63,766 bases of DNA from an uncultured Syntrophaceae bacterium (lineage in GTDB: Bacteria > Desulfobacterota > BSN033 > UBA1163): assembly GCA_964390545.1 (NCBI GenBank), contig CAYMJV010000005.1, positions 1 to 63,766 on the forward strand. Reading direction: 5' to 3'. Within the stretch, counting starts at the first letter, position 1. The number at the start of each line of letters is the position of its first letter. The notes beneath the pieces are model-generated. The model saw nothing but the letters and a program-made list of their open reading frames with translations, ran no database searches and had not been told where the DNA came from. A program made the translations under genes and the position numbers. Below are positions 19,429 through 62,038 of the stretch, one piece after another.

Positions 19429-20037
19429 TTACAGAAAAAGGTTCACCTCTCCTTTCCCTTTTCGGATCACCTTTGGAAGATCATCGGAAAGGTCGATAAT
19501 GCTGGAGTGCTCTGCAACAATCACTTCTCCATCGATCACGAGGTCCAACTGTTTTCCGAACCGCTCTTCAATCTCGTCCGGGTCATTGTAAAGGCTCTCA
19601 TCGGGTTTATAGACACTCGTGCTGATGATGGGATGTCCCAATTCCTTCACCAAGGCAAGGCATATTTTATTATCAGGAATTCGAATCCCTACCGTCTTCT
19701 GTTTCGTCAAGGCGATCTTGGGGACCAATTTGGTGGCTTTCAGAATGAAGGTGTAAGCCCCCGGGAGGAGGCGCTTCATCGTCTTATACGCATAATTTGA
19801 AACATAAGCATATCGGCTGATATCTTTTAAATCGGAACAGATGAAACTGAGGGGCTTATTCCCATCGGTCTTTTTCAGTCGATGAATCTTCTTGATGGCC
19901 TCAGGGTTGAAAAGGTCGCAGCCCACCCCGTAGATGGTGTCCGTAGGATACCCAATCACCCCTCCCTCCTTCAAAACATCCACAACCTTCCTGATCAGCC
20001 TCTTTTGCGGATTCTTGGGATTGATGGTGATGATCAT
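19429..20037 (-). CDS. Sua5/YciO/YrdC family protein
   Basis: YPTDTIYG, KPLSFIC, VGIRIPD, IISTS; start MIITINPKNPQ after GGAGG. Confidence 0.9.
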   Translation of the reverse strand: MIITINPKNPQKRLIRKVVDVLKEGGVIGYPTDTIYGVGCDLFNPEAIKKIHRLKKTDGNKPLSFICSDLKDISRYAYVSNYAYKTMKRLLPGAYTFILKATKLVPKIALTKQKTVGIRIPDNKICLALVKELGHPIISTSVYKPDESLYNDPDEIEERFGKQLDLVIDGEVIVAEHSSIIDLSDDLPKVIRKGKGEVNLFL

Positions 20038-23693: not shown

Positions 23694-26150
23694 ATGGAAA
23701 GGCAGAACCAATTGGCAAGAAAGAGAGGTAAGAAAGGATGGGTGTATTACCTCCTTTATACCTTTATCCTCTCGACTCTCCTCTTTCTACTGTGTGGAGC
23801 TTTCCTCTTTTTCTATTACTCCCATCAACTCCCTGATTTTAAGCCTCTCAAGGATCGACATCTCAATGCCTACTCCACTGTCTACTCTGAAGAAGACGAG
23901 GCGGTCGGTAAATTCCTAATGGATAATCGAATTCCCGTCCCTTACGAACGGGTTCCAAAAACCCTGGTGGACGCGTTCATCGCTGCGGAGGATGCAGAAT
24001 TTTTTAGGCACAAAGGAATCGACTTCAAGGGAATCACCCGCGCGATGATCAAAAACCTCATGGCAGGGAGAATTGTCCAGGGAGGAAGCACGATCACCCA
24101 GCAGGTAACGAAGATCTTCTTTCTGACCCCCAAGAGAAGCCTCCTGCGGAAATTGAAGGAAGTAGCCTATGCCTTTGGACTGGAGAGGAACTTGAGCAAA
24201 GAGGAGATCCTCGCCCTCTATCTCAACAATATCTACCTAGGGAACGGAGCCTATGGCGTGGAGGCCGCGGCTGAAAGTTATTTCAATAAGCGGACAGAGC
24301 AGCTCAATCTGGCGGAGATGGCTATGATGGCCGGCCTGGTGAAAGCCCCGAGCCGCTATTCACCAATCAATAGCCTAAAAAAGGCGAAGGAGCGTCAGGT
24401 CTATGTCCTGACACGGATGACCGATTTAGGATTCATCTCCCAAGAGCAAAAAGAAAAGGCTCAGCAGACACCCTTAAAAATTCAATCGCGGGAGAGTGCC
24501 TATTTTAGCAAAGCACCTTACTTCACCGAATTCATCAGGCAACTGGTGGAGAGGAAATACGGTAAAGAGAAACTCTATCAGGAAGGACTTAGGATCTACA
24601 CCACCCTCGATCTTTCCCTCCAGAGAGCGGCGCAGAAAAATGTAGAAATGGGGCTCAGGGACCTGGACAAGAGGCAGGGGTTTCGGGGTCCCATCCAAAC
24701 CCTCTCCCAAAAGGAGATGAAAGATCTTCAGAATAAGAAGAAAGGGAGCTTGAACCCTCTCCTCCAGAATGAGATCTATGAAGGGGTCATCCTCTCCAAA
24801 GAAGATTCAAAGAAACATTTTACGGTCTGGGTGGAAGATCGGAAGGGAATTCTTCCTTATTCAGAATCAACGTGGGCCCTTCAGATCAAACCCAGCTCTA
24901 CCTACAAGCCACAAAAGGTAAAGAATCCCGGGGACCTTCTCAACCCAGGAGATGTGGTTCATGTGAGGGTGAAAGAACTTCCTGCCAAAAAGGACCAGGC
25001 TCCAATCCTTTCTCTTGAGCAGCAACCTCTCATCCAGGGAGCGCTGCTCTGTCTCGATCCCAAAACGGGTTATGTAAAGACCATTGTGGGAGGTCGGGAT
25101 TTCAGCGAAAGCCAATTTAACCGCGCCCTCCATTCCCGAAGACAACCTGGTTCCGCCTTCAAACCCATCATCTACGCAGCCGCACTGGAGAAAGGCTATA
25201 ACCCTTCCACGATCATTATGGACTCCCCCGTGGAATATGAAGATTATGACGAAGGAACCTATTGGGCTCCAAAGAATTATGATAAGAATTTCATGGGACC
25301 GATCACCTTTCGAAATGCCTTAGCCCATTCCAGAAATGTGGTGACCGTAAAGATCCTCGAAGATATTGGTGTGGGTTATGTTCTCAGATTCATCAAACGA
25401 TTAGGGATCGAATCACCCATCAAGAGGGATCTCTCCGTTGCCCTGGGAACTTCTGGCGTCTCCATGCTCGAATTGGCTCAGGCCTTTGGGGCCTTCGCGA
25501 ACGGAGGGGAACGGGTCAAACCGATTTTTATCAAAAAGATCGTCACCCTGAAGGGGGAAGTGCTTGAGGAGAATTATCCTTATGTGGAATTGGAGGAGAA
25601 GGAAGAGGAGGAGGAAGGAAATGGGGAGGCCTCGTCCCCTGTGTTAAGAGAACGCGTGATCTCTCCCCAACACGCCTTCATCATGACCCATCTTCTTGAA
25701 GGCGTCGTTCAACATGGAACCGGTCAGAGAGCCAAAGTTCTTAATAGACACATCGCAGGAAAGACCGGTACCTCGAGCGACTATACGGATGCTTGGTTCG
25801 TCGGATACTCCCCCTCCCTTCTCACGGCGGTTTGGGTAGGTTTCGACGAAAAGACTTCTATTGGGAAGGACGAAACAGGGGCCCGTGCAGCTCTTCCCAT
25901 CTGGATCGCCTTTATGAGTAAGGCCCTGGCGGAAAGCCCCGCAGAAGAGTTCAAGGCACCCGCAGGAATTGTCATGAAGAAAGTTAATATCGAAACGGGC
26001 CTGCCCACTCATGAAGAGTCCAACGAGACGATCCTCGAAGCTTTCGTTGAGGGAATGCTGCCGGAAGAGAAAGAGGGTGAAAGAAAAGAAGAGTCTCCCT
26101 CTTCACCCGCTATCAGAGACATGCTTCCCAAGGAGAGTCCAAGTTACTGA
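23694..26150 (+). CDS. mrcA: Penicillin-binding protein 1A (transglycosylase, OB insert, transpeptidase)
   Basis: AAED, GGSTITQQ, RKLKE, YLNNIYLG TG motifs; GSAFK (SxxK), SRN, KTG TP motifs. Confidence 0.95.
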   Translation: MERQNQLARKRGKKGWVYYLLYTFILSTLLFLLCGAFLFFYYSHQLPDFKPLKDRHLNAYSTVYSEEDEAVGKFLMDNRIPVPYERVPKTLVDAFIAAEDAEFFRHKGIDFKGITRAMIKNLMAGRIVQGGSTITQQVTKIFFLTPKRSLLRKLKEVAYAFGLERNLSKEEILALYLNNIYLGNGAYGVEAAAESYFNKRTEQLNLAEMAMMAGLVKAPSRYSPINSLKKAKERQVYVLTRMTDLGFISQEQKEKAQQTPLKIQSRESAYFSKAPYFTEFIRQLVERKYGKEKLYQEGLRIYTTLDLSLQRAAQKNVEMGLRDLDKRQGFRGPIQTLSQKEMKDLQNKKKGSLNPLLQNEIYEGVILSKEDSKKHFTVWVEDRKGILPYSESTWALQIKPSSTYKPQKVKNPGDLLNPGDVVHVRVKELPAKKDQAPILSLEQQPLIQGALLCLDPKTGYVKTIVGGRDFSESQFNRALHSRRQPGSAFKPIIYAAALEKGYNPSTIIMDSPVEYEDYDEGTYWAPKNYDKNFMGPITFRNALAHSRNVVTVKILEDIGVGYVLRFIKRLGIESPIKRDLSVALGTSGVSMLELAQAFGAFANGGERVKPIFIKKIVTLKGEVLEENYPYVELEEKEEEEEGNGEASSPVLRERVISPQHAFIMTHLLEGVVQHGTGQRAKVLNRHIAGKTGTSSDYTDAWFVGYSPSLLTAVWVGFDEKTSIGKDETGARAALPIWIAFMSKALAESPAEEFKAPAGIVMKKVNIETGLPTHEESNETILEAFVEGMLPEEKEGERKEESPSSPAIRDMLPKESPSY

Positions 26151-28811: not shown

Positions 28812-29900
28812 TTATTTTTCATTTGGGACGAGATTGAAAAAGCCCCCTTCTTCGTAAACCGGTTTCCTATAAAAGGCTTCCAAGCCCAGAGCGATAAATG
28901 GCAGGGTGAGGATGATCTTCTGGTTTTCGTCTGTGCTGTAGCCTAAAATCTTCAACATCATGCTATAAGGTTTTGTGCCCGGTCGATATCTTCTTTCCTC
29001 TAGAGTGACCTTTCTTAATAAGGCTCTGATGTCTTGGAAATGTCTTGAGTCCAATATCTTTCTCCCCGTCGCATCGCCAAGAGGATGGTAATATTCCATC
29101 AACTGGCCCCTCAATTCCTCAACGTCTGAACTCTTTGGCCATCGATCAAGTTCCTCTCTGAAGTTCCTTAAGGTGGATTCCAGCTTCAATAGCCGTTTGT
29201 CTGCCTCACCATCCAACGGTGTTTCCCCATCCCAGAAAACAGGTTTTCCCCCGTCAATCCCGTGCTTCTCCGGGTCAAGGTAGACCATGGTATTACTCTT
29301 GAAATTTATATAATAAAGCGAGATGTGTAAGTGGGGTGGCTGAACCCATCGATATTCCATGGGACCCAAGCCGGAGTTGCCGGAAAGGGCGACAATCTCG
29401 CCCCTTCCTAGCGCTCGAACCCCTTCTCCCAGGTATTTCATCACGTCTCCTGAGATGAGGAACTTCTCGTTAACAAATGTATCCTCTAAATGGGCATAAA
29501 CAACTCGATAGGCCGGATTGAAAACATCGGCTAACATGACATAAAGAGTCTCTTTCCAGTCCCTCGTCCTCTGTCTCAAATAAGAAGGCGTCATTGGCAC
29601 GATAGGGGTGAACATAGGGACATCATAATCCACCCCAGGGGAGGCGTTTCCTCGAATATGCCCTTGAAAGTCCCCCGGCCCTCCATATCTCGAAAACCAT
29701 TGAATGGGAGGGCCAAAAATGGGGTCCCAGTCCTTTGTAAGGGTGGCATAGTAGTCACGATTCAAGACTTCATCCAGACTTTGTTTGCCTTTTCGAAGGC
29801 CGGTGCATCCTGAAAAGAGGGAACTCCCGATCCCTGTGGCAAGAGCGAATTTAAACCCCATCTCCAAAACATTCCTTCTCGTATACCCTGCCATCTTCAT
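28812..29900 (-). CDS. Tat-signal lipoprotein with divergent M23 peptidase-like domain
   Basis: TRRNVL twin arginine, FSGC lipobox, H..(x)..GVDYD and PHLHIS metal-binding-like motifs. Confidence 0.6.
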   Translation of the reverse strand: MKMAGYTRRNVLEMGFKFALATGIGSSLFSGCTGLRKGKQSLDEVLNRDYYATLTKDWDPIFGPPIQWFSRYGGPGDFQGHIRGNASPGVDYDVPMFTPIVPMTPSYLRQRTRDWKETLYVMLADVFNPAYRVVYAHLEDTFVNEKFLISGDVMKYLGEGVRALGRGEIVALSGNSGLGPMEYRWVQPPHLHISLYYINFKSNTMVYLDPEKHGIDGGKPVFWDGETPLDGEADKRLLKLESTLRNFREELDRWPKSSDVEELRGQLMEYYHPLGDATGRKILDSRHFQDIRALLRKVTLEERRYRPGTKPYSMMLKILGYSTDENQKIILTLPFIALGLEAFYRKPVYEEGGFFNLVPNEK

Positions 29901-30162: not shown

Positions 30163-30341
30163 AACATGGAAATAGGTTTTGAATTTTAAAGCCCTGCCCT
30201 GTGGGCGGAGTTCTTTACTTTTAATGTCTGAGAGGACTGAACTCTGTAATTGACACGTTTCACTCAAAGATGTAGATTTCAATTGGTAGTAGAGAGGCTC
30301 CGAATCTTGTTAGGTGAGGTTCAATATTTAAATCTTGTGAA

Positions 30342-31193
30342 ATGGAGGTTTGGTTGAAGGCCGTATACACGATTACGCCGAGCTACCTGATCAAAAAGAA
30401 GAGAGACTTCACGGCCGGCGTAAAGAACCTGGAGAAGCTGGGGTTTAAAGTCATCAATAAGAGACCGGTAACCAACCTGCCCTCCATCCGCAGAAAAGTT
30501 GCGCAGGTCCACGCTGCTTTTTTGAATAAAAAGGTTGAAATCATCCTTGCCCAGAGAGGCGGATACAGTTGCATGAAGCTCCTACCCCATCTGGATTTCA
30601 ACCTCATCCGCAACAACCCCAAGATCCTGGCCGGGTTCAGCGATCTCAGCGCCCTGCTCAATGTCATCTGTGAGCGGACCGGTCTGATCACGCTCCACTC
30701 GCCCATGGTCATAAACTTTTCCCCGCCTTCCAGGTTCACGATCCGCTCGTTCCTAAACGCCGTGAATGGGTTCCCCAACAGAAACCTGTTTGAAGGGGTG
30801 CCGGTGAAGGTGCACCGCTCCGGAATTGCCCGGGGGCGCCTGAAAGGGGGAAATCTGATCACCCTCACCGCCCTCATCGGCACGGAATGGGAAATGGACA
30901 CGGACGGGACAATTTTATTCCTAGAGGACGTTGACGAGAAACTGTACGAAGTCGATCGGTATCTTACCCAGTGGATCCATGCTGGCAAGCTGCGAAGAGT
31001 GAAGGGGCTGATCCTGGGCGATTTCAGAGGGATCAAAGACCGAGATGTTTACCATATTTTATCCAGCCAGATGAAGATCGACTTCCCGCTGGTAAGTTCT
31101 CCCTATATTGGACACGTTAGGAACAAGATCACCCTGCCCGTCGGCGCCCGGGTGGAACTCAACACGATGAAGAAAGCGCTCACCCTTCTATGA
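30342..31193 (+). CDS. ldcA: LD-carboxypeptidase (peptidase S66)
   Basis: RGGY, GFSDLSAL (Ser), FLEDVDE (Glu), IGHV (His) triad motifs. Confidence 0.88.
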   Translation: MEVWLKAVYTITPSYLIKKKRDFTAGVKNLEKLGFKVINKRPVTNLPSIRRKVAQVHAAFLNKKVEIILAQRGGYSCMKLLPHLDFNLIRNNPKILAGFSDLSALLNVICERTGLITLHSPMVINFSPPSRFTIRSFLNAVNGFPNRNLFEGVPVKVHRSGIARGRLKGGNLITLTALIGTEWEMDTDGTILFLEDVDEKLYEVDRYLTQWIHAGKLRRVKGLILGDFRGIKDRDVYHILSSQMKIDFPLVSSPYIGHVRNKITLPVGARVELNTMKKALTLL

Positions 31194-31765
31194 ATACGGT
31201 TTGGATCTTGCTGATGGCGACAAGCGTTCTCTTTTCCTTCCTAAACGGTAGACTGGATGCGTTTACGAAGTCCATTTTCGAAGGGGCGAAATCAGCGGTC
31301 GAGGTCTCTCTTTTCCTTCTGGGCATCGTTTGTCTTTGGCTGGGGATCACCAAGGTCATTGAAGATTCGGGGCTGATCAACCGCCTCTCCGGCTTCTTTC
31401 AATATTTTGTGAGGCGGCTCTTCAGAAATATTCCCCCGGAACATCCCGCTATCACTTCCATCACCTTGAACTTCCTGGCCAACCTTTTCGGGCTCGGGAA
31501 TGCTGCCACCCCTCTCGGAATCAAGGCCATGCAGGACCTTAAGACTCTGCATCCGGATGGGGAAACCATCACCTTTGAGATGATGGTTTTCATCGTGGTG
31601 AATACCGCCAGCATTCAACTGATCCCTTTCACTGTGATCGGCATCCTTGCGGATTACGGATCCAAAGACCCGTCGGCCATTGTCCTGCCCACCCTACTGG
31701 CAACTTTCCTATCGGCCCTCGTTGCTCTCGGGCTCCTGTTCGCGGTCAGGAGGATCCTTAAATGA
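31190..31765 (+). CDS. spmA: SpmA-like membrane protein (nucleoside-recognition Gate domain)
   Basis: ANLFGLGNAATPLGIKAM and NTASIQLIP motifs; overlaps the ldcA stop. Confidence 0.9.
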   Translation: MNTVWILLMATSVLFSFLNGRLDAFTKSIFEGAKSAVEVSLFLLGIVCLWLGITKVIEDSGLINRLSGFFQYFVRRLFRNIPPEHPAITSITLNFLANLFGLGNAATPLGIKAMQDLKTLHPDGETITFEMMVFIVVNTASIQLIPFTVIGILADYGSKDPSAIVLPTLLATFLSALVALGLLFAVRRILK

Positions 31766-32298
31766 AAACGGTCAGCTTGATTTCGCAGCTCATCATTCCG
31801 CTCTTCATCCTGTTTGCGATTCTTTATGGGTGGGCCAAGAAGGTTAGGGTTTACGATTGTTTCGTCTCTGGCGCAAAAGGCGGGGTGGGCGTCGTGGTCA
31901 GGGTTTTCCCGTACCTCCTGGCGATCTTCGTGGCGGTCAAAGGTTTTCAAGCCTCCGGGGCCTTTGAATTTGCCCAGGAGCTGCTACGGGGGCCCCTGGG
32001 GGTCTTCCATGTTCCCATCGACGTGGTATCGATTGCCCTCATCAAACCCTTGTCCGGAAGTGCTTCGCTAGGCGTGTTCACAAATATCGTCAGAACCAAT
32101 GGTCCGGATTCCCTGGCCAGCCTGATTTCTGCGGTCATCATGGGGAGCGCGGAAACGACCTTTTACGTACTGGCAGTTTACCTGGGTGCGGTGGGGATTA
32201 AGAGGACAAGATATCTGGTTCCGGTCTGCGTTCTCGCCGACCTCGTCGGGATCATCATCGCAATCAGCATCGTGAAATTCTTTTTTCATTTGGGCTGA
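31762..32298 (+). CDS. spmB: SpmB-like membrane protein
   Basis: VYDCFVSGAKGG, KPLSGSAS, MGSAETTFYVLAVY motifs. Confidence 0.9.
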   Translation: MKTVSLISQLIIPLFILFAILYGWAKKVRVYDCFVSGAKGGVGVVVRVFPYLLAIFVAVKGFQASGAFEFAQELLRGPLGVFHVPIDVVSIALIKPLSGSASLGVFTNIVRTNGPDSLASLISAVIMGSAETTFYVLAVYLGAVGIKRTRYLVPVCVLADLVGIIIAISIVKFFFHLG

Positions 32299-32380
32299 TG
32301 GACTCAAGATGTGGAGGATGCCTGGTTTGAAGAACTTCGTTTTTCGAAGACACAGGGAGATCCTGGAAAATTTCTTCCTG

Positions 32381-32487
32381 AAAACCTCTCCCCGCCCCTT
32401 TTAAAAGAATATCATACAAAATCTTCAAACTTACAAGTTGAGGAGACTTTCTTATTTTTGATGTCTGAGAGGGCTCGCTGAGTAATG
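32381..32487. repeat. Direct repeat copy 2 (uninterrupted)
   Basis: See 29901-29969. Confidence 0.8.
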
Positions 32488-32536
32488 GTAGGTTTAATCC
32501 TTTTCCCTTTTAAATAGGACCCTAAAGCCTCATCAA

Positions 32537-33043
32537 TTACTTCCGTTTCGGCAGATAAACAGAAGGCACAGTTCCGGCCCATATCCAAAGAAGGCCATAT
32601 TCCTTCGATGGGCTTCCTGTTAGTGTAAAGGTTTTTCCATCTATTTCTGAATCTATGCCTGTCAGTGTTGCTATGATTACTACTTCCTCAGGCCCCAGAG
32701 TAACAACGGTTATTGAACTGATCTTGTTAGTAGACATGCTTGCACCCAAGCTGGTTTTGATGTCCTCCATGGTATGAAGAGAAGGGAGGAATGAGTTTGC
32801 TTCTTGATGATATGCTGCTATCTCAGCAGCGACGTTGCTCATATAATTGGTTATCTCCGTCAATTTCTCAATCCTAGTATTCTCACTTCTCTTAAACTGT
32901 CGAAGTATATCATCAAAACCTTTATAAGCCTCATTTTCCGTTTGTTTGATGATAGTCAATCCAAAAAACAATCCAGCAGTCAAACAAATCACCACAACTA
33001 AGAAAATCAATACATTTCTTACCTTGATAAACTTCTTATCCAT
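32537..33043 (-). CDS. Hypothetical membrane-anchored protein
   Basis: One N-terminal TM helix; GGAG RBS; no recognised family. Confidence 0.6.
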   Translation of the reverse strand: MDKKFIKVRNVLIFLVVVICLTAGLFFGLTIIKQTENEAYKGFDDILRQFKRSENTRIEKLTEITNYMSNVAAEIAAYHQEANSFLPSLHTMEDIKTSLGASMSTNKISSITVVTLGPEEVVIIATLTGIDSEIDGKTFTLTGSPSKEYGLLWIWAGTVPSVYLPKRK

Positions 33044-33566
33044 CTCCTTGGGAAAATAGTGGGAAGCATGGGGGGCTTTGGGGGGTACCGGCTGGTTGAT
33101 TCAGATTATATGTGAAATAGAAACTCTCCCCCCCCCAAAAAAATTTGGTGGTTATATAAAGGCAGGGAATAGGTAAGGATGAAACCAAGCAAATCTTTTG
33201 TTGAGACGCATCCTGGCGATTAACAAAGTCAAAAATAAATCTTAGAGAGCAGCTAAGGGGGGAGGGGTCGATAAGGCTTCTCCCCTTCTTGTTTTCTTCC
33301 TGAAACTATCTGTTCCCTAATTTTAGCCAAAAGTGTATATTACAACTGCAAATGAACAACGCGGATGTGTCTCGATCCCTTTGAATAATTCATTCTGAAA
33401 TTAACTCGTTTCTATATAATATTGTGTAAAACCATCTTTTCTGGAAAAATAGTATGATATTCAAGCCTTTTGAATAAAAGAGAGCCTTTAATGGTTTAAG
33501 ATTTAATAAAAACATAGAAGCAGCTTAATAAATAAGTTAGGCGGTCAGTAAGGAAGGAATTCAATT

Positions 33567-34313
33567 ATGAATGATTTAGAAAAATACTTCATAGAAAATA
33601 CAGGAAGACTGATTGAGAAATGGAAACACTATTTTGAAATTTATGATCGACACTTTTCGCGTTATAGGGGTACTGATGTTCACATTATTGAATTCGGTGT
33701 ATATCAAGGCGGTTCTTTGCAGATGTGGAAACAATATTTTGGGCCTAATTCCAAAATATTTGGGATAGACATCAATCCACATTGCAAGAAGCTAGAAGAG
33801 GAACAGATTGAAATATTCATAGGTGATCAGGAAGATAGAAGATTCCTGAAAGCGCTAGCAGAAAAGATTCCAAGAATAGATATCTTGATTGATGATGGCG
33901 GTCATACAATGAAGCAGCAAATAAACACCTTTGAGGAGCTTTTCTCTTACATTGATGAGAATGGTGTGTATCTATGCGAAGACATACATACCTCTTATTG
34001 GCTGAGGTGGGGCGGAGGCTATAAGAAACGCGGCACGTTTATAGAGTACAGTAAAAACTTTATCGACTATATAAATGCTTGGCATTCTACCCGAACAAGC
34101 AGGTTAAGCGTCACAGAATTCACTAGATCGGTTCACTCATTGCATTATTACGATAGTGTTCTTGTGATTGAGAAGCGACCAATTGAAAAGCCATTGCACC
34201 TGGAAACTGGAACACCAGAAATTCCAAATTTTGATCCGCCAAAGAGCTTATTGAAACGCCTCAATGGACAGTTGAAACGAGAAATAGACCACCTAACAAG
34301 GCGCTCCACCTGA
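33567..34313 (+). CDS. Class I SAM-dependent methyltransferase (cassette gene)
   Basis: IIEFGVYQGGS, FGIDI, DILIDDGGH, YLCED motifs; AT-rich relative to neighbours. Confidence 0.85.
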   Translation: MNDLEKYFIENTGRLIEKWKHYFEIYDRHFSRYRGTDVHIIEFGVYQGGSLQMWKQYFGPNSKIFGIDINPHCKKLEEEQIEIFIGDQEDRRFLKALAEKIPRIDILIDDGGHTMKQQINTFEELFSYIDENGVYLCEDIHTSYWLRWGGGYKKRGTFIEYSKNFIDYINAWHSTRTSRLSVTEFTRSVHSLHYYDSVLVIEKRPIEKPLHLETGTPEIPNFDPPKSLLKRLNGQLKREIDHLTRRST

Positions 34314-34362
34314 CCGCTTTTCCGCTGCGCTTCAAAGCGGCCGGTGAGCTTTATGGTTATAC
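34291..34362 (+). other. attC recombination site (72 bp)
   Basis: R'' ACCTAAC, 5-nt spacer, L'' GCTCCACC pairing with L' GGTGAGC with one extrahelical C, CCGCTTT/AAAGCGG stem, R' GTTATAC. Confidence 0.9.
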
Positions 34363-34640
34363 TCTCTTTCTAAGGGAAATCATCAACCTCTAATGTAGAC
34401 TAATCCTCACTCTTTGTAGGTGCTATACGTAACATATTCTGCTTTTTCTTTTGATATTAGTTAGTTATACACCGTTTCCCAAGAATATTCTCGCTGACTT
34501 CTCCATTCAACCCATATATACTGCCATCAAGATTTAGGCCTTCCGCTCGTTCTTTGAGTCAACTTAACAATACAACCTTTAACCTTTTGGAGTGAACTAT
34601 TGGGGGGATTCCAAAAGGTGCCTAATAAAGACTAAAGATT

Positions 34641-35159
34641 ATGAAACAGATTACCCTGGCGATAATTTTCGTCGTACTTATGTTTGGGATTTCCTTCGCT
34701 TTTGATTGCCCAAAATGCAAGATAGAGATGGTGGAGAAGGATGGCATAGCTACTTGCCCGAAGTGCGGTTTTTCAGCTAAAATTGGCCGGACTAAAATTT
34801 ATAAAGAGCCAACAGTCGAAGAAAAGATGAGAACGATTGAACAAGAAAAGGAGGTGAAACTCAAAAACCTTGACGAGAATCTCATAAGGGACGTCAGCAA
34901 AGTTAAGAAGGATGGGGAATATGACTCAAAGATTGAAAGAATAAATGAGCTTAAAAACAGGATAGAACGGTTAGAGGGAGAATTGAGAATAGTAGAAAAT
35001 GAAATGAAGAAGATCGACTGGGAAAGAAATATGTCGACTGGAAGATTACCATATAATTTGAGCTATAGATATGCTGGACTGAGGGGAGAACAGGAAGCTA
35101 TCAAGGATTGGATTAGAAGGTATGAATTTGAAATTGAAACAATTAAAAGAAGTTTATGA
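34641..35159 (+). CDS. Hypothetical exported protein with two CxxC motifs and a coiled coil
   Basis: Signal peptide ending SFA; CPKC-x12-CPKC; charged helical C-terminus. Confidence 0.65.
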   Translation: MKQITLAIIFVVLMFGISFAFDCPKCKIEMVEKDGIATCPKCGFSAKIGRTKIYKEPTVEEKMRTIEQEKEVKLKNLDENLIRDVSKVKKDGEYDSKIERINELKNRIERLEGELRIVENEMKKIDWERNMSTGRLPYNLSYRYAGLRGEQEAIKDWIRRYEFEIETIKRSL

Positions 35160-35364
35160 ATAGTTACTAAAACGTAACCAACCAACTTCACGGGTTACTT
35201 TCGGCGAAATCCTCAAAAAAAGAAACTCAAGATTAAGTTCTCAAAAAGCAAAGGCAGGGTCAGAGAAATGACCCTGCTCCTCAACCATGGAAGGAGACAA
35301 TGTTGACTCAGCTTCAACCCCATTTCTGAAAAGCGAATGGGGTTTTTTGTTCGGAAGGAGATTT

Positions 35365-35697
35365 GTGAAGAGAGCAATTCTTATTATAATTCCATTTCTA
35401 ATTCTCACCCTCTCTCTTTCTGTTTCGCATGCCCAAACTTACAAAGTGAAGCGGGTCATTGACGGCGACGCCCTCCTCCTTACCAACGGTGAATATGTCC
35501 GCTTGATCGGTGTTGATACTCCCGAAACAAAGCATCCACAAAAGCCTGTTGAGTATTTTGGAAAGGAAGCCTGTCAATTCACCAAGCGAATGGTAGAAGG
35601 AAAGGAAGTCAGGCTTGAATATGACCAGACCAGGTCCATATCTAAGTATCCCCCTGACACAAAGGTCATACATTACCCCCAATGCCCCATTGCTTGA
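35365..35697 (+). pseudogene. Truncated thermonuclease (SNase-like)
   Basis: VKRVIDGD..VRLIGVDTPE motifs present; similarity breaks after RLEYDQT and the C-terminal half is absent. Confidence 0.7.
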
Positions 35698-35766
35698 TTT
35701 TCGAGGTGGAGGCGTTATAATACCCAGGGCGTTTCAAATATCTTCAGCTTCCAGAGGAGGTGTGTT

Positions 35767-36504
35767 ATGAAGACATTGTTATTGTTAAGCAATCTGCTCC
35801 CCGTGATCATTGCAGTTTCTTCCTTCGCCCAGGAGAAATTCGAGACAGATATCATCAAGACATCGGCGGGTGACCTGAAGATCACCTTCATCGGCCACGG
35901 CACGTTGATGTTCAATTTTGGGGGAAAGGTGACCCATGTGGATCCCTACAGCAATTTGGCCGATTATAACACCCTCCCCAAGGCCGACCTGATCCTCTTG
36001 ACCCATGACCACCCGGACCACCTCGATCTGAAGGCCTTGAATGTAGTACGAACAGGCAAGACGATCGTGGTGTTGACCGAGGCCTGTGGAAAACAGGTGC
36101 AGGGAGGCATTGTGATGATGAACGGCGATGTGAACACATTGGAAGGGTTAAAGATCGAGGCTGTGCCCGCCTACAATATTGTCCAAAAACGGGACACCGG
36201 TCAGCCTTTTCACCCGAAGGGAGTTGGCAACGGCTACATCATCACCTTCGGTGACAAGCGGGTCTATGTGGCTGGCGATACTGAGAACATCCCAGAGATG
36301 AAACGCCTGAAGAACATTGACATTGCATTCCTGTCCATGAATCTCCCCTACACAATGACACCCGAGATGGTGGCTGATGGGGCAAAGGTCTTCAAACCTA
36401 AGATCCTCTATCCCTATCACTTTGGTGAAACGGATACGTCGAAGGTGGTGAGCTTGCTTAAGGAAACTCCGGAGATTGAGGTCCGCATCCGAAAAATGAA
36501 ATAG
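35767..36504 (+). CDS. MBL-fold metallo-hydrolase, exported
   Basis: THDHPDHLD, YVAGDT, PYHFG motifs; signal peptide. Confidence 0.88.
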   Translation: MKTLLLLSNLLPVIIAVSSFAQEKFETDIIKTSAGDLKITFIGHGTLMFNFGGKVTHVDPYSNLADYNTLPKADLILLTHDHPDHLDLKALNVVRTGKTIVVLTEACGKQVQGGIVMMNGDVNTLEGLKIEAVPAYNIVQKRDTGQPFHPKGVGNGYIITFGDKRVYVAGDTENIPEMKRLKNIDIAFLSMNLPYTMTPEMVADGAKVFKPKILYPYHFGETDTSKVVSLLKETPEIEVRIRKMK

Positions 36505-36552
36505 AGGGATTTTTGTGTAGGGTCATAATGAAATGGAAGGAGGAAAAAGATA

Positions 36553-36699
36553 ATGTGCTTCGCTGGACAGAAAAGCGGATGTCAGTTCCCTGATCAGTTA
36601 AAGGGGAAACCTAAAGACTGCACTCCCAAACAGATTAAGGAGTGCCATGGGTCTATAAAAAGGCACCCTTGCCTTCCTAAAAGGAATAAAAAGAAATAG
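36553..36699 (+). CDS. Small Cys-rich protein (48 aa), below the ORF-track cutoff
   Basis: MCFAGQKSGCQFPDQLKGKPKDCTPKQIKECHGSIKRHPCLPKRNKKK; GGAGG RBS upstream. Confidence 0.6.
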   Translation: MCFAGQKSGCQFPDQLKGKPKDCTPKQIKECHGSIKRHPCLPKRNKKK

Positions 36700-37051
36700 T
36701 TATGAATCAGAGGGAAAGAAAACGGTAGTCAAATCCCCTTTCGTTCCTTTAAACAATCAACCTTAGGGGTAGACATGGATAAGCATTGCATTAAACCCCA
36801 TTTCTGAAAACGGAATGAGGTTTTGTTTTCCTAACCTTTAGGGATACAAGAGTTAAGAAATTCCAAAGTGGGTGGATGATATGAGAAAGATGATGACAAG
36901 ACTACGGTTGGCTTCTGTGTCGGATCAGACCTTGATTTGTCCCAAGCCGGACTTGATCGAAAAATTGATCCTCAATAGTGGGAAAAGATGAGATTTCAAA
37001 ACCTACCCAATTACCTACCGTTTAAAACCTCCAGAGTTTTCAAGAAGTTTC

Positions 37052-37126
<75 letters not shown>

Positions 37127-37195
37127 CTTTTTAGACATTGTTTCTTTTTTTACCATGTTTTAGAATAGTCGTCAATCAAGAACGGGGGCATTCGT

Positions 37196-38173
37196 TTGAA
37201 AAGATTCCTCATCTCCTTACTTGTTACCTGCATCATCCTTTTCATCCTATTTACCCAGATCTCCCTGAAAGGTCTCTTTACCCTTTTAATACAGATCGAT
37301 CCTTTTTGGGCGACGTTGGGATCCGCAGGTTACTTCCTGGCCACTCTCTTTCGTGCCCTTCGATTTCGATGGCTGATCCATTCGAAGGACATTTCAATCG
37401 ATGAACTCTTTCGAATCTCTGTATTCTATCATTTATCCCTCATGGTCCTTCCTTCCAAACTCGGAGAACTCTCTTATCCCTATCTCCTAAATAGAATCGG
37501 TGGGATCAGCATGACCGAAGGGCTGGCTTCCCTGATTGCTTCGAGGGTCTATGATTTTTTCATCATCCTGGTGATCTTTCTGTTCTCCTCTCTCGCATTT
37601 CAGAACCTTTTCAAGGTCAACCTTCTCTTTGTCCTTCTCCTTACCCTTCTCTTGATCCTTCTGATTCTCGCCGCCTTCTTCTATATGAATCGTCTCTTGA
37701 TCTTGATCTCTAATGTCTGCGGATGCATATTCAAGATTCTCCGAAAAGAAGAGAGCAAAACGGCCCTATGGGTCCAAAAAACAATTCATGAAATGTCAGA
37801 AGACTTCTATGCCATTCGAGCTAAAAAGACCTACCTCGCCGTTACTCTGACCAGCATCCTTTCCTGGTTTATGATTTTCTTAACGTTTGAAGCTTTTCTC
37901 TTGGGATTCGGGGTCGAAATCTCTTTCCTTAAAGTGCTCTTTGGTTCAACCGTTGCTGTTATTGCAAACGCCTTACCCATTGGGGGCATTGGCAACTGGG
38001 GAACACTTGAGGTGGGATGGGCTGCTGGGTTTCTGATGACCGGACTTCCCAAAGAGCAGGCGATTGCCACAGGATTCGGCGTTCACATCCTGATATTTAT
38101 CACCTGTGCTCTACTTGGACTGCTCAGTTGGGTGACTTTGAAAAAGAAAAAAGCCCCTCTCCGAACCTCTTGA
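37196..38173 (+). CDS. Lysylphosphatidylglycerol-synthase TM domain (flippase-like, UPF0104) protein
   Basis: Multi-TM; RALRFRWLI, PSKLGEL, LPIGGIGNWGTLE motifs. Confidence 0.8.
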   Translation: MKRFLISLLVTCIILFILFTQISLKGLFTLLIQIDPFWATLGSAGYFLATLFRALRFRWLIHSKDISIDELFRISVFYHLSLMVLPSKLGELSYPYLLNRIGGISMTEGLASLIASRVYDFFIILVIFLFSSLAFQNLFKVNLLFVLLLTLLLILLILAAFFYMNRLLILISNVCGCIFKILRKEESKTALWVQKTIHEMSEDFYAIRAKKTYLAVTLTSILSWFMIFLTFEAFLLGFGVEISFLKVLFGSTVAVIANALPIGGIGNWGTLEVGWAAGFLMTGLPKEQAIATGFGVHILIFITCALLGLLSWVTLKKKKAPLRTS

Positions 38174-52428: not shown

Positions 52429-53343
52429 CTAATTCAAAATATATCGCGCGGGATTGATCGGAATGCTATTAATCTTAACTTCGTAGTGGAGATGAGGGCC
52501 GGTTGTCTTTCCGGTCATTCCCACCTCCGCAATCTTATCTCCCCGTTTCACCCTCTGCCCAGTCTTTACAAGAACCTTGCTCAGGTGGCCGTAGCGGGAG
52601 GTCATACCAAATCCATGGAAGATCACGACAACCTTTCCGACGGCGACATCATTTCCGACGTCCGAAACGATTCCGTTCGAGGGAGCGATCACAGGGGTTC
52701 CTATCCGATTTGAAATATCAAGACCCTCATGCATCTGAGTTAAACCCGTAAAGGGGTTTGTACGATACCCGAAACCCGATGTCACCCAACCCTGCACCGG
52801 CCAGACGGATGGGGTATGGGCTAACATCTCCCTCTTCACCTGCAAAAGTTTCTCGAGTTCAGAAAGGCTATCCTCCCGGGACACAGCCTCGGATTGGAGG
52901 CGCTCGACATCGCTTTTCATCTGTTGAACCAGTCCGGCATCATCTTTCTCTTTTTTCAATTTATCCCGAATGTCAGATGGAGATGGACCCCCCATTCCCA
53001 AGGAAGGGGTGGTTTCCTGTCCTCTCTCGAGATTAGCAATGATTCGAATTTTCTTGTCGAATTCTTTCAGTTTGGAGAGTTGTTTCTCCAGATCTTCAAT
53101 TCTTGCTGAGAAGAATTGAATCTGAGACCTCTGGTTTTGGGTCTCCTGACGGAGACGGCTCAATTCAAAGGCCTTCTTTTTAACCTGAATGTAATCGCAA
53201 AAGAAGAATGTTGTAGAAAGAAGGGCGAAACCAATCAGATAGAATGAAATCTTTACGGTCTTTTTCCGTATCTTAAGATGGCGGGTCTTCGCGGCCTTGT
53301 GGCCAAAGATAAGAATATTAAAGTATTCTTTATCCAAGGTCAC
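52429..53343 (-). CDS. M23 family metallopeptidase (coiled coil plus LytM domain)
   Basis: MHEGLDI, YGHL, TGPHLHYEV motifs; N-terminal TM and coiled coil. Confidence 0.93.
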   Translation of the reverse strand: MTLDKEYFNILIFGHKAAKTRHLKIRKKTVKISFYLIGFALLSTTFFFCDYIQVKKKAFELSRLRQETQNQRSQIQFFSARIEDLEKQLSKLKEFDKKIRIIANLERGQETTPSLGMGGPSPSDIRDKLKKEKDDAGLVQQMKSDVERLQSEAVSREDSLSELEKLLQVKREMLAHTPSVWPVQGWVTSGFGYRTNPFTGLTQMHEGLDISNRIGTPVIAPSNGIVSDVGNDVAVGKVVVIFHGFGMTSRYGHLSKVLVKTGQRVKRGDKIAEVGMTGKTTGPHLHYEVKINSIPINPARYILN

Positions 53344-60769: not shown

Positions 60770-60895
60770 AAATGCAATGTCAAAGTCCAAAATCAAAATT
60801 CCAAATGAATGTCAAATATCAAAAATTTTCCAAATGATTTGAAATTTAAACATTTGGATTTCATTTGAACTTTGAACTTTGTCATTTGAAATTTA
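60770..60895. repeat. Periodic inverted-repeat element, CAAAT/TTTG type
   Basis: Same arm layout as 16853, 26578 and 49401; between alr and mlaE. Confidence 0.85.
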
Positions 60896-62038
60896 TAATT
60901 TTCCCTTATAGATCCTTGGAATTCTTTTCCCTATAGAACAGAACACTTCATACGAGATGGTATTCATCCTATCTGCCATCTCCTCCGCCGTGATGATCTC
61001 CTTCCCCTGGCTTCCGATCAAAACGACTTCATCTCCTAATGAAACCTTGGGAATATCTGTTACGTCCACCATGATGAAATCCATGCAAACCTTTCCCACG
61101 ACAGGGGCCCTCTTCCCCCGGACCAACACTTCTCCTCGATTGGAGAGGTAGCGACTGTACCCATCTGCATATCCAATGGGAAGGGTGGCGATGAGGCTTT
61201 CTCTCCTGGTCACAAAGGTCCCTCCATAACTGATCCTGAATCCAGAAGGGACGGACTTTAAGAAATGGATGCGAGTCCTTAGGGTCATCACGGGCTTGAG
61301 GTGAATGAGGCTCTTCAACACGGGAGAGGGATAAGCCCCATAAAGCATGATCCCTGGCCGAACCAGATTCCCGGAATAGTAAGAAGAGGTTGTGAGCAAG
61401 GCACTGCTGGCCATATGAACGTATTTGCAACGAATTCCTAATTCTTCAGCACACCTCACCGCCCCTAGAAATTGATCCCATTGATGTTTGGTATAATCTT
61501 CCTCGCTCATCATAGAAAAATGGGAGAGAATGCCTTCGACTTCAACTTTTGGGAAATGAGGGATCTCTTTTAGAAAATTGGGCCAGAGAGATAAGGGGAC
61601 GCCCAACCGCCCCATCCCTGTATCCACTTTGAGGTGAACCCTTACCTTCTTCTTTCCTCTTTGGGCTACTTTGGAGATGAACTTCAAGGCCTCCTTATGA
61701 AAAACAACAGGAGTGAGGTCGAACCGAAAAATCTTTTCAATATCTCCATCATAAATTCCACCCAGGACAAGGATCGGCGCCCTCACTCCTCCTTTTCTCA
61801 GCTCCACCCCTTCTTCCGCAATGGCAACACCCAGATACTCGACTCCTAATTTCTCCAACTTACGAGAGATCGGAACGGCTCCATGACCATAGGCATCCGC
61901 CTTTACAACGGCCAGGATTTTTACTCCTTTCGGGACCCTCTTTTGAAGTTGTCGATAGTTAAAGGCAAGGGCATCCAGGTCGATCTGTGCGATCGTTGGC
62001 CTTCCGGGCGTTAGAGATAAATTTCTCTTGAGGTTCAT
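60893..62038 (-). CDS. alr: Alanine racemase
   Basis: AVVKADAYGHG, KVDTGMGRLG, PIGYADGY motifs. Confidence 0.97.
   Translation of the reverse strand: MNLKRNLSLTPGRPTIAQIDLDALAFNYRQLQKRVPKGVKILAVVKADAYGHGAVPISRKLEKLGVEYLGVAIAEEGVELRKGGVRAPILVLGGIYDGDIEKIFRFDLTPVVFHKEALKFISKVAQRGKKKVRVHLKVDTGMGRLGVPLSLWPNFLKEIPHFPKVEVEGILSHFSMMSEEDYTKHQWDQFLGAVRCAEELGIRCKYVHMASSALLTTSSYYSGNLVRPGIMLYGAYPSPVLKSLIHLKPVMTLRTRIHFLKSVPSGFRISYGGTFVTRRESLIATLPIGYADGYSRYLSNRGEVLVRGKRAPVVGKVCMDFIMVDVTDIPKVSLGDEVVLIGSQGKEIITAEEMADRMNTISYEVFCSIGKRIPRIYKGKL

Follow-up and report, generated by a model that had tools for sequence, protein, structure and literature searches.

What two membrane proteins named for spore maturation do directly behind the gene of a cell wall carboxypeptidase, in a bacterium with an outer membrane, is the question raised by a locus of an uncultured Syntrophaceae bacterium (Desulfobacterota; GenBank assembly GCA_964390545.1). 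The window, meaning the whole stretch of DNA analysed here, comprises 63,766 nucleotides (contig CAYMJV010000005.1, positions 1 to 63,766) and belongs to a metagenome-assembled genome (G000) of 425 contigs that total 3.76 Mb, with a completeness of 85% and a contamination of 4.35%. Three open reading frames (ORFs) follow one another on the forward strand: a gene for an S66 serine LD-carboxypeptidase family protein (30342–31193; 283 amino acids, aa), one for a SpmA-like Gate-domain membrane protein (31190–31765; 191 aa) and one for a SpmB-like Gate-domain membrane protein (31762–32298; 178 aa). Both junctions, S66/spmA and spmA/spmB, are 4-base ATGA stop/start overlaps, as an earlier note on this DNA had described. 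The carboxypeptidase-spmAB operon is present here in a new form, with an S66 LD-carboxypeptidase as its enzyme, and no paper linking SpmAB with an LD-carboxypeptidase or with wall recycling was found in the searched literature. The outer-membrane genes that the earlier note had mentioned are also in place: the window encodes TonB_C, AcrB and a membrane-fusion protein, MlaD/MlaE, and a YfiO/BamD-like tetratricopeptide repeat protein, and the host is therefore taken to be diderm.

The first gene product contains both Pfam domains of the S66 family, PF02016 (94.8 bits, cut-off 25, E 5e-27) and PF17676 (106.7 bits, cut-off 23.7, E 1.5e-30). When it is aligned with the solved S66 protein Lmo1638, its motifs GFSD (Ser), FLED (Glu) and IGH (His) coincide with the corresponding ones there; a second Lmo1638 entry (4inj) has GFAD at the position of the catalytic Ser. 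The resulting triad, Ser100-Glu195-His258, is intact, in agreement with the earlier note, and invariant in 18 of 18 S66 orthologues. No signal peptide was detected in the window protein, and its predicted location is cytoplasmic. The gene may start at a TTG at 30354 rather than at the annotated ATG, because the N-terminus obtained from this in-frame codon, MKAVYTITPS, fits the MKxVYxITPS of the orthologues; the TTG lies five bases past a GGAGG (30344–30348) and would give a protein of 279 aa. The relatives in the PDB are Lmo1638, MccF-like proteins and LdcA, the best of them including MccF and MccF-like proteins (E 2e-28 to 6e-24). The sole NCBIfam match is the LdcA equivalog NF008424, at 134.1 bits and hence below its curated threshold of 378. 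Only one PF02016 match occurs in the window genome, and the S66 gene of the S66-spmA-spmB trio is the sole S66 gene in all eight trio genomes tested, which measure 2–5 Mb.

The second and third gene products both exceed the cut-off of Pfam Gate (PF07670), at 44.8 bits for the SpmA-like and 35.8 bits for the SpmB-like protein. The former is 46% identical to SpmA of the Brevibacillus dacB-spmA-spmB operon, and both fall into the same tree. The AlphaFold model of SpmA contains eight helices (predicted local distance difference test, pLDDT, 90). Among clusters at 50% identity, 3177 relatives of SpmA were found at E<=0.001, many of them fusions of 400–490 aa. SpmB is fused to SpmA in 42 of 92 loci of a first set and in 27 of 79 of a second, and because the halves are joined in these 69 surveyed loci, SpmA and SpmB work as one protein. 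Nineteen long or N-terminally extended relatives of SpmA, considered as candidate S66-SpmA fusions, were rejected, as they contain Gate domains only. Nearly all endospore formers have conserved SpmA and SpmB. Outside the Firmicutes, SpmA is present in 64 of 301 genomes sampled evenly from the phylum of the window, in 14 of 121 genomes of Elusimicrobiota, and in 44 of 121 genomes of a third phylum.

How often an S66 gene adjoins spmAB was counted in 171 of the about 250 loci of a neighbourhood survey of the kind that the earlier note had called for (loci, genomes and families are given L, G and f numbers where they must be told apart); two pairs among the 171, L009/L034 and L010/L097, are identical. 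S66 adjoins spmAB in 31 of these loci (32 ORFs), always on the same strand, at position -1 (24), -2 (5) or +1 (3), and at the other positions it was found in none of 852 ORFs. The five cases at -2 comprise four artefacts of the ORF caller and one split gene. In one Elusimicrobiota trio (L091, G312:C16, 6695–7428), the S66 gene is split into ORFs of 131 and 107 aa by a frameshift, a stop or an assembly error; this trio lies directly downstream of Mur-ligase genes on its own contig. Eight of the 64 SpmA-positive genomes of the window's phylum have the trio, namely the window and seven of the 63 other loci, with S66 at -1 on the same strand; six of these seven belong to family f37 and the seventh to f83. 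In Elusimicrobiota, the trio occurs in 13 of the 14 SpmA-positive genomes, and the remaining one carries a fused SpmAB. The 18 loci found with the SpmA of the window itself comprise nine with S66 directly upstream, among them that of an Elusimicrobia genome whose three proteins are about 62% identical to those of the window, one cut at SpmA, and eight from Melainabacteria. Among 17 distinct trios, the ATGA overlap is kept at the S66/spmA junction in 12 and at the spmA/spmB junction in 11, the remaining values being partly due to start calls at the longest ORF. As a positive control, Brevibacillus SpmA served as query for Bacilli; of the 80 loci obtained, 69 have DacB (S11) at -1 and none has S66, and the dacB-spmA-spmB order that the earlier note had named for Bacillus is thereby reproduced. 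None of the trio loci has a DacB match, and the gene upstream of spmA in the window encodes S66, not an S11 DD-carboxypeptidase. Contigs from RNA libraries of relatives about 91–93% identical span the S66/spmA junction (two runs, one study), which is weak support for expression, as these runs cover small shares of the stretch (0.06–0.10) and the contigs, being those of relatives, cannot prove a single transcript.

The trio also behaves as a unit in descent. In a quick IQ-TREE tree of SpmA, the S66-linked sequences fall into one clade of 30 rows (Shimodaira-Hasegawa-like approximate likelihood ratio test, SH-aLRT, 99), 24 of them S66-linked and six not, and rows from Elusimicrobiota and Desulfobacterota are intermixed inside it. 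Between these two phyla, S66, SpmA and SpmB are each about 62–65% identical. When positions 20001–42000 of the window were compared by blastn with 15 trio loci, only 30340–32377 on the forward strand (in L005 and L007) or shorter spans aligned, and the flanks differ even in relatives that are 85–87% identical. Since the clade mixes phyla and the DNA homology ends at the borders of the trio, the three genes are inherited and moved together. A search of nine further genomes from the family of the window found SpmA in none, whereas family f37 has the trio. This pattern reflects either horizontal acquisition of the cassette or mis-binning of the contig (C5).

The S66 enzyme also stands apart from its usual partners. 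Five trio genomes (G000; G290, which is 94% complete; G301; G303; and G312) were searched for the proteins of peptidoglycan recycling. Mpl above its cut-off, AnmK, and an Amidase_2/AmpD-type amidase were each found in none of the five, while the control genomes matched in every case; the best matches of the Mpl search (about 200–220 bits) are probably MurC-like. As these three proteins were not found, the S66 enzyme is without its usual cytoplasmic partners, and its substrate would therefore have to arrive as a free peptide. SpmAB is the only constant companion of this orphan enzyme. A fourth gene, located at +1 behind spmB and on its strand, is present in 17 loci and encodes a 233-aa class-II glutamine amidotransferase (GATase)-like N-terminal nucleophile (Ntn) hydrolase with an N-terminus beginning MC and a GATase_4 domain, whose best NCBIfam match is EgtC (56 bits against 219). 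G301, G303 and G312 carry such an EgtC-like gene beside the trio. With the one query used, none was recovered from G290 or G000, and the window has DNA of low GC content at that place.

Gene neighbourhoods in other lineages connect SpmAB with the cell wall in further ways. A Legionella SpmA query yielded 80 loci, in 79 of which SpmA was called. In this set, a gene for an AmiA-like amidase (PF07313) with a signal peptide stands divergently at -1 in 33 of the 79, an M23 peptidase gene stands convergently within +2 in 29, and both are present in 26, the pair being characteristic of Legionellales. S66 adjoins spmAB in four loci of the set, in new gene orders: MurE-LysA-SpmA-SpmB-S66-M20 amidohydrolase (L157), LysA-M20-SpmA-SpmB-S66-DapF (L165), MgtE-SpmA-SpmB-S66 (L160), and, in MED-G177 (L164), PBP4 (S13)-S66-SpmA-SpmB followed by an amino acid permease of the amino acid-polyamine-organocation (APC) family. 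The order spmA-spmB-S66 is that of three Tissierellia-like Firmicutes. MurE, LysA, DapF and the M20 amidohydrolase of two of these S66-linked operons all score above their NCBIfam cut-offs, and these neighbours point to peptides containing meso-diaminopimelic acid (mDAP). Between the three gene arrangements, identity is 32–38% for S66 and 41–47% for SpmA. Two Tissierellia-like genomes have a second spmA-spmB pair (L268 and L269), which neither DacB nor S66 adjoins; in Tissierella simiarum this second pair lies 13 kb from the S66-linked one. A decarboxylase next to SpmAB in L100, considered as LysA, was rejected, as it is a carboxynorspermidine decarboxylase.

The remaining SpmAB loci have more varied surroundings. 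The neighbours of fused SpmAB genes are mixed housekeeping genes with isolated wall cases, namely one SLT protein, one Mur_ligase_M protein and, in a Chthoniobacteraceae locus, a NagZ-like glycoside hydrolase of family 3 behind the fused gene (184 bits against 207). A LysM protein adjoins split-type SpmAB in one locus (L054). About ten loci of Verrucomicrobiota share a Pyr_redox_2 gene beside SpmAB. In nine loci from Chthoniobacterales and relatives (L149, L150, L153, L159, L161, L162, L171, L183 and L186), a conserved pyridine nucleotide-disulphide oxidoreductase of 393 aa is encoded behind SpmAB on the same strand, and SpmAB is fused in eight of these nine. In all eight Melainabacteria loci (L013 and L015–L021), a highly acidic, low-complexity protein of 245–278 aa with no Pfam match is encoded directly 5' of spmA on the same strand. 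No wall hydrolase adjoins the gene in records of Bacteroides, Prevotella, Monoglobus and Vescimonas.

Taken together, these data suggest that SpmAB imports free mDAP stem peptides for trimming by S66 and for salvage, a reading that is held tentatively, as the chances for and against it are nearly balanced and incline slightly against. The trio would then be a self-contained, translationally coupled cassette in which S66, SpmA and SpmB are made together, the latter two being the halves of one putative Gate-domain protein of the inner membrane. Periplasmic amidases and endopeptidases would free stem tetrapeptides ending in mDAP-D-Ala, SpmAB would move these from the periplasm to the cytoplasm, and the S66 enzyme would take off the terminal D-Ala there. 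The products would be salvaged or degraded as a source of mDAP and lysine and would not be re-ligated by Mpl, and the EgtC-like Ntn hydrolase of many relatives may open the gamma-glutamyl bond. That SpmAB transports at all, what it carries, and in which direction are read from gene neighbourhoods and remain conjectural steps of this scheme. The peptidoglycan recycling proposed in the earlier note finds no support in the Mpl sense, and salvage or catabolism fits better. As for cargo, it had named D-Ala or stem peptides; the neighbours favour the second, in the form of mDAP peptides, and speak against the first, as alr, ddl and dadA or another D-amino acid dehydrogenase gene were absent among the scanned SpmAB neighbours. 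The observation itself is thus confirmed and its interpretation partly supported.

A wider version of the same idea is more doubtful: SpmAB could form a widespread and unrecognised family of stem-peptide permeases, which in diderms and some Firmicutes feeds an orphan S66 enzyme, and by way of it the salvage of mDAP and lysine, and in endospore formers clears stem peptides from the intermembrane space. For spores, this would mean that peptides shed in cortex maturation, once DacB has trimmed them and the amidase CwlD has released them, are cleared from the closed space between the membranes. Osmotically active peptides left there would account for the wet, expanded core of spmAB mutants. If the idea were right, SpmAB would constitute a third class of peptidoglycan-fragment carriers, next to those of the major facilitator superfamily (MFS; AmpG) and the ATP-binding cassette (ABC) type (Opp, Yej), and would offer a mechanism for the dehydration of the spore core. 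In either version, the tie to S66, in an operon that is strictly kept and horizontally mobile, and the independent links to DD-carboxypeptidases, to amidases and to mDAP and lysine metabolism turn the label "spore maturation" into a hypothesis of stem-peptide transport.

Several observations weigh against import of stem peptides by SpmAB. To our knowledge, transport is not on record for any SpmAB protein. The SpmA model has no Foldseek match at E<=0.001 (best E 0.69), its best VIA-align matches, at Z 8.0, are unrelated helical bundles, and concentrative nucleoside transporters reach Z 5.8–6.1 over 164–172 residues, which is within the noise of helical models. Judged from its sequence, the S66 protein is of unproven specificity, given its 134 bits against the 378 of the LdcA equivalog and the MccF-like proteins among its best PDB relatives. 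G000, G303 and G290 each encode an AmpG-like MFS protein, which scores below the cut-off. Three genomes that are 97–98% complete (G289, G035 and G172) have SpmAB of the S66-linked clade and no S66 gene anywhere; the six rows of that clade without an adjacent S66 include these three genomes and two with S66 elsewhere. The S66-spmAB link is confined to some split-type clades, S66 being absent from all 42 and 27 fused loci of the two sets, and no wall gene adjoins most SpmAB loci. By Pfam, the ±1 and ±2 neighbours of the fused loci contain no recurrent wall enzyme, the second set being covered in part by a hand-picked selection, and the eight Melainabacteria loci have SpmA and SpmB with neither S66 nor a wall gene adjoining. 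Moreover, the gene calls are those of a crude longest-ORF caller, genomes that are related do not count as independent, G000 is only 85% complete, and among the wall families the control by position was counted for S66 alone.

Much of this evidence would suit a role of SpmAB outside the wall, as a membrane partner, a regulator or a carrier of some other small solute such as an ion, a nucleoside or an osmolyte, with the link to S66 reflecting a shared timing of expression. The absence of S66 from all 69 fused loci, their varied housekeeping neighbours, the Pyr_redox_2 genes of Verrucomicrobiota, and the three genomes that retain SpmAB of the S66-linked clade without any S66 agree with such a role, and the Pfam family is one shared with FeoB and nucleoside carriers. 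However, co-regulation alone leaves unexplained why 4-base overlaps are kept across phyla and why three genes are transferred as a block whose borders are those of the trio. Nor does it account for a link with S66 that was re-created in three gene orders or for the orphan state of the enzyme, so that a non-wall role is judged unlikely, if still a serious competitor. Chance adjacency without functional meaning might be argued from the majority of SpmAB loci, which lack S66, but the counts by position refute it, as S66 is a single-copy gene in genomes of 2–5 Mb and flanks spmAB in 31 of 171 loci as against none of the 852 other ORFs; its probability is negligible.

The two other alternatives keep an enzymatic link and change the cargo. 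SpmAB might carry D-Ala or another small amino acid and not peptides, importing it after an extracytoplasmic DD-carboxypeptidase has acted or exporting it after cytoplasmic LdcA has. Release of D-Ala is common to DacB (S11), PBP4 (S13) and S66, each of which was found adjoining spmAB, and in L164 the APC permease gene follows spmB directly. These enzymes, however, release D-Ala in different compartments, so that no single direction of transport can suit all of them. The alanine racemase gene of the window is 29 kb off and the D-Ala genes named above are missing from the scanned neighbourhoods, whereas the amidase, M23, MurE, LysA, DapF and Ntn hydrolase neighbours favour peptides and mDAP; D-Ala transport is therefore considered improbable. 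It is more improbable still, to the point of being barely credible, that S66 is an MccF-like hydrolase detoxifying aminoacyl-nucleotide antibiotics while SpmAB handles the nucleoside moiety. The ranking of MccF and MccF-like chains among the best PDB relatives and the occurrence of the Gate domain in nucleoside carriers agree with this proposal. Yet the enzyme is the sole S66 protein of its genome, its 279–283 aa compare with 331–371 aa in the matched MccF chains, and the stretch between its two domains falls short of that of Lmo1638 by about 20 residues (query 127–146 against chain 141–182). Its only NCBIfam match is the LdcA equivalog, and in other lineages it stands beside genes of the wall and of mDAP and not in antibiotic clusters. 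Import of mDAP stem peptides for S66 thus remains the preferred explanation, at the tentative level given above.

In the surroundings of the trio in the window, a promoter-like site, TTGACA-17-TAGATT, with 10 of 12 matches, is located at 30250–30278 on the forward strand, 64 nt 5' of the annotated ATG; its significance is weak, two such sites being observed in the region against 2.4 expected from shuffles, and it lies outside the conserved cassette, because the DNA shared with close relatives reaches no further 5' than 30340. A predicted lipoprotein of 362 aa (28812–29900, reverse strand), transcribed divergently from the S66 gene, has an LFSGC lipobox and an M23-like SGNSG...PHLH motif. It has no Pfam or NCBIfam match and is not kept beside the trio in relatives; it was rejected as a part of the unit, and it is unrelated to the 362-aa gene 5' of S66 in L066. 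Straight after spmB, the GC content drops to 0.40–0.45 (32300–38000). This stretch encodes a pilin-like protein (32537–33043, reverse strand; Pfam Pilin 22.2 bits, cut-off 22), a methyltransferase, a staphylococcal nuclease (SNase)-like protein and a metallo-beta-lactamase (MBL)-fold protein, and, situated where relatives have the EgtC-like gene, it is possibly an insertion or a replacement. Further wall genes of the window, for a class A penicillin-binding protein (23694–26150), an M23 peptidase (52429–53343) and an alanine racemase (60893–62038), do not adjoin the trio.

The trio can be compared with several known systems. With E. coli LdcA, which acts in the pathway of AmpG, NagZ, AmpD, LdcA, Mpl and AnmK, the S66 protein shares the peptidase family, the triad and the predicted cytoplasmic location, but it is no equivalog by score, Mpl, AnmK and an AmpD-type amidase were found in none of the five trio genomes searched, and E. 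coli LdcA is without the membrane protein pair that is tied to S66 here. In B. subtilis, the ykfABCD genes provide an S66 enzyme that acts in the breakdown of wall peptides and not in Mpl-type recycling, linked to the Dpp ABC transporter and not to SpmAB. E. coli yjiH-yjiG-iadA (L107, 4355–6681) resembles the trio in that two small Gate-type membrane proteins are encoded with a 4-base overlap and the isoaspartyl dipeptidase gene iadA, for a peptidase of an unusual peptide bond, follows 12 bases on. YjiG is a distant relative of SpmB, which matches YjiG NF007811 weakly and aligns with the E. coli protein in hhalign at a probability of 84% (E 8e-6). The peptidase family and the gene order differ, however, YjiH is not significantly similar to SpmA, and the function of YjiG is still called elusive (PMC13311989). 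AmpG, MppA-OppBCDF (PMC10622912) and YejBEF-YepA (PMC9790009) are alike in the role proposed here, that of bringing wall fragments to cytoplasmic trimming enzymes, and there is a precedent for another carrier in lineages without AmpG; SpmAB is neither an MFS nor an ABC protein, consisting instead of two Gate-domain halves for which transport is only proposed. The closest parallel is the dacB-spmA-spmB operon of Bacillus, which, with its wet-core phenotype, is treated as established in a passage of PMC13188902 (citing Popham et al., 1995), while the biochemistry of SpmA and SpmB is described as unknown in parts of a 2022 preprint (10.1101/2022.02.25.481979) and of a 2012 sporulation survey. In both operons, the gene of a wall-peptide carboxypeptidase stands directly 5' of spmA-spmB, with frames that overlap or abut, as seen in Brevibacillus. 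The host of the window, though, is a Desulfobacterota-type diderm for which no link to sporulation is known, its SpmA belongs to a separate clade, and the secreted S11 DD-carboxypeptidase of Bacillus is replaced by an unrelated S66 LD-carboxypeptidase that is predicted to act in the cytoplasm.

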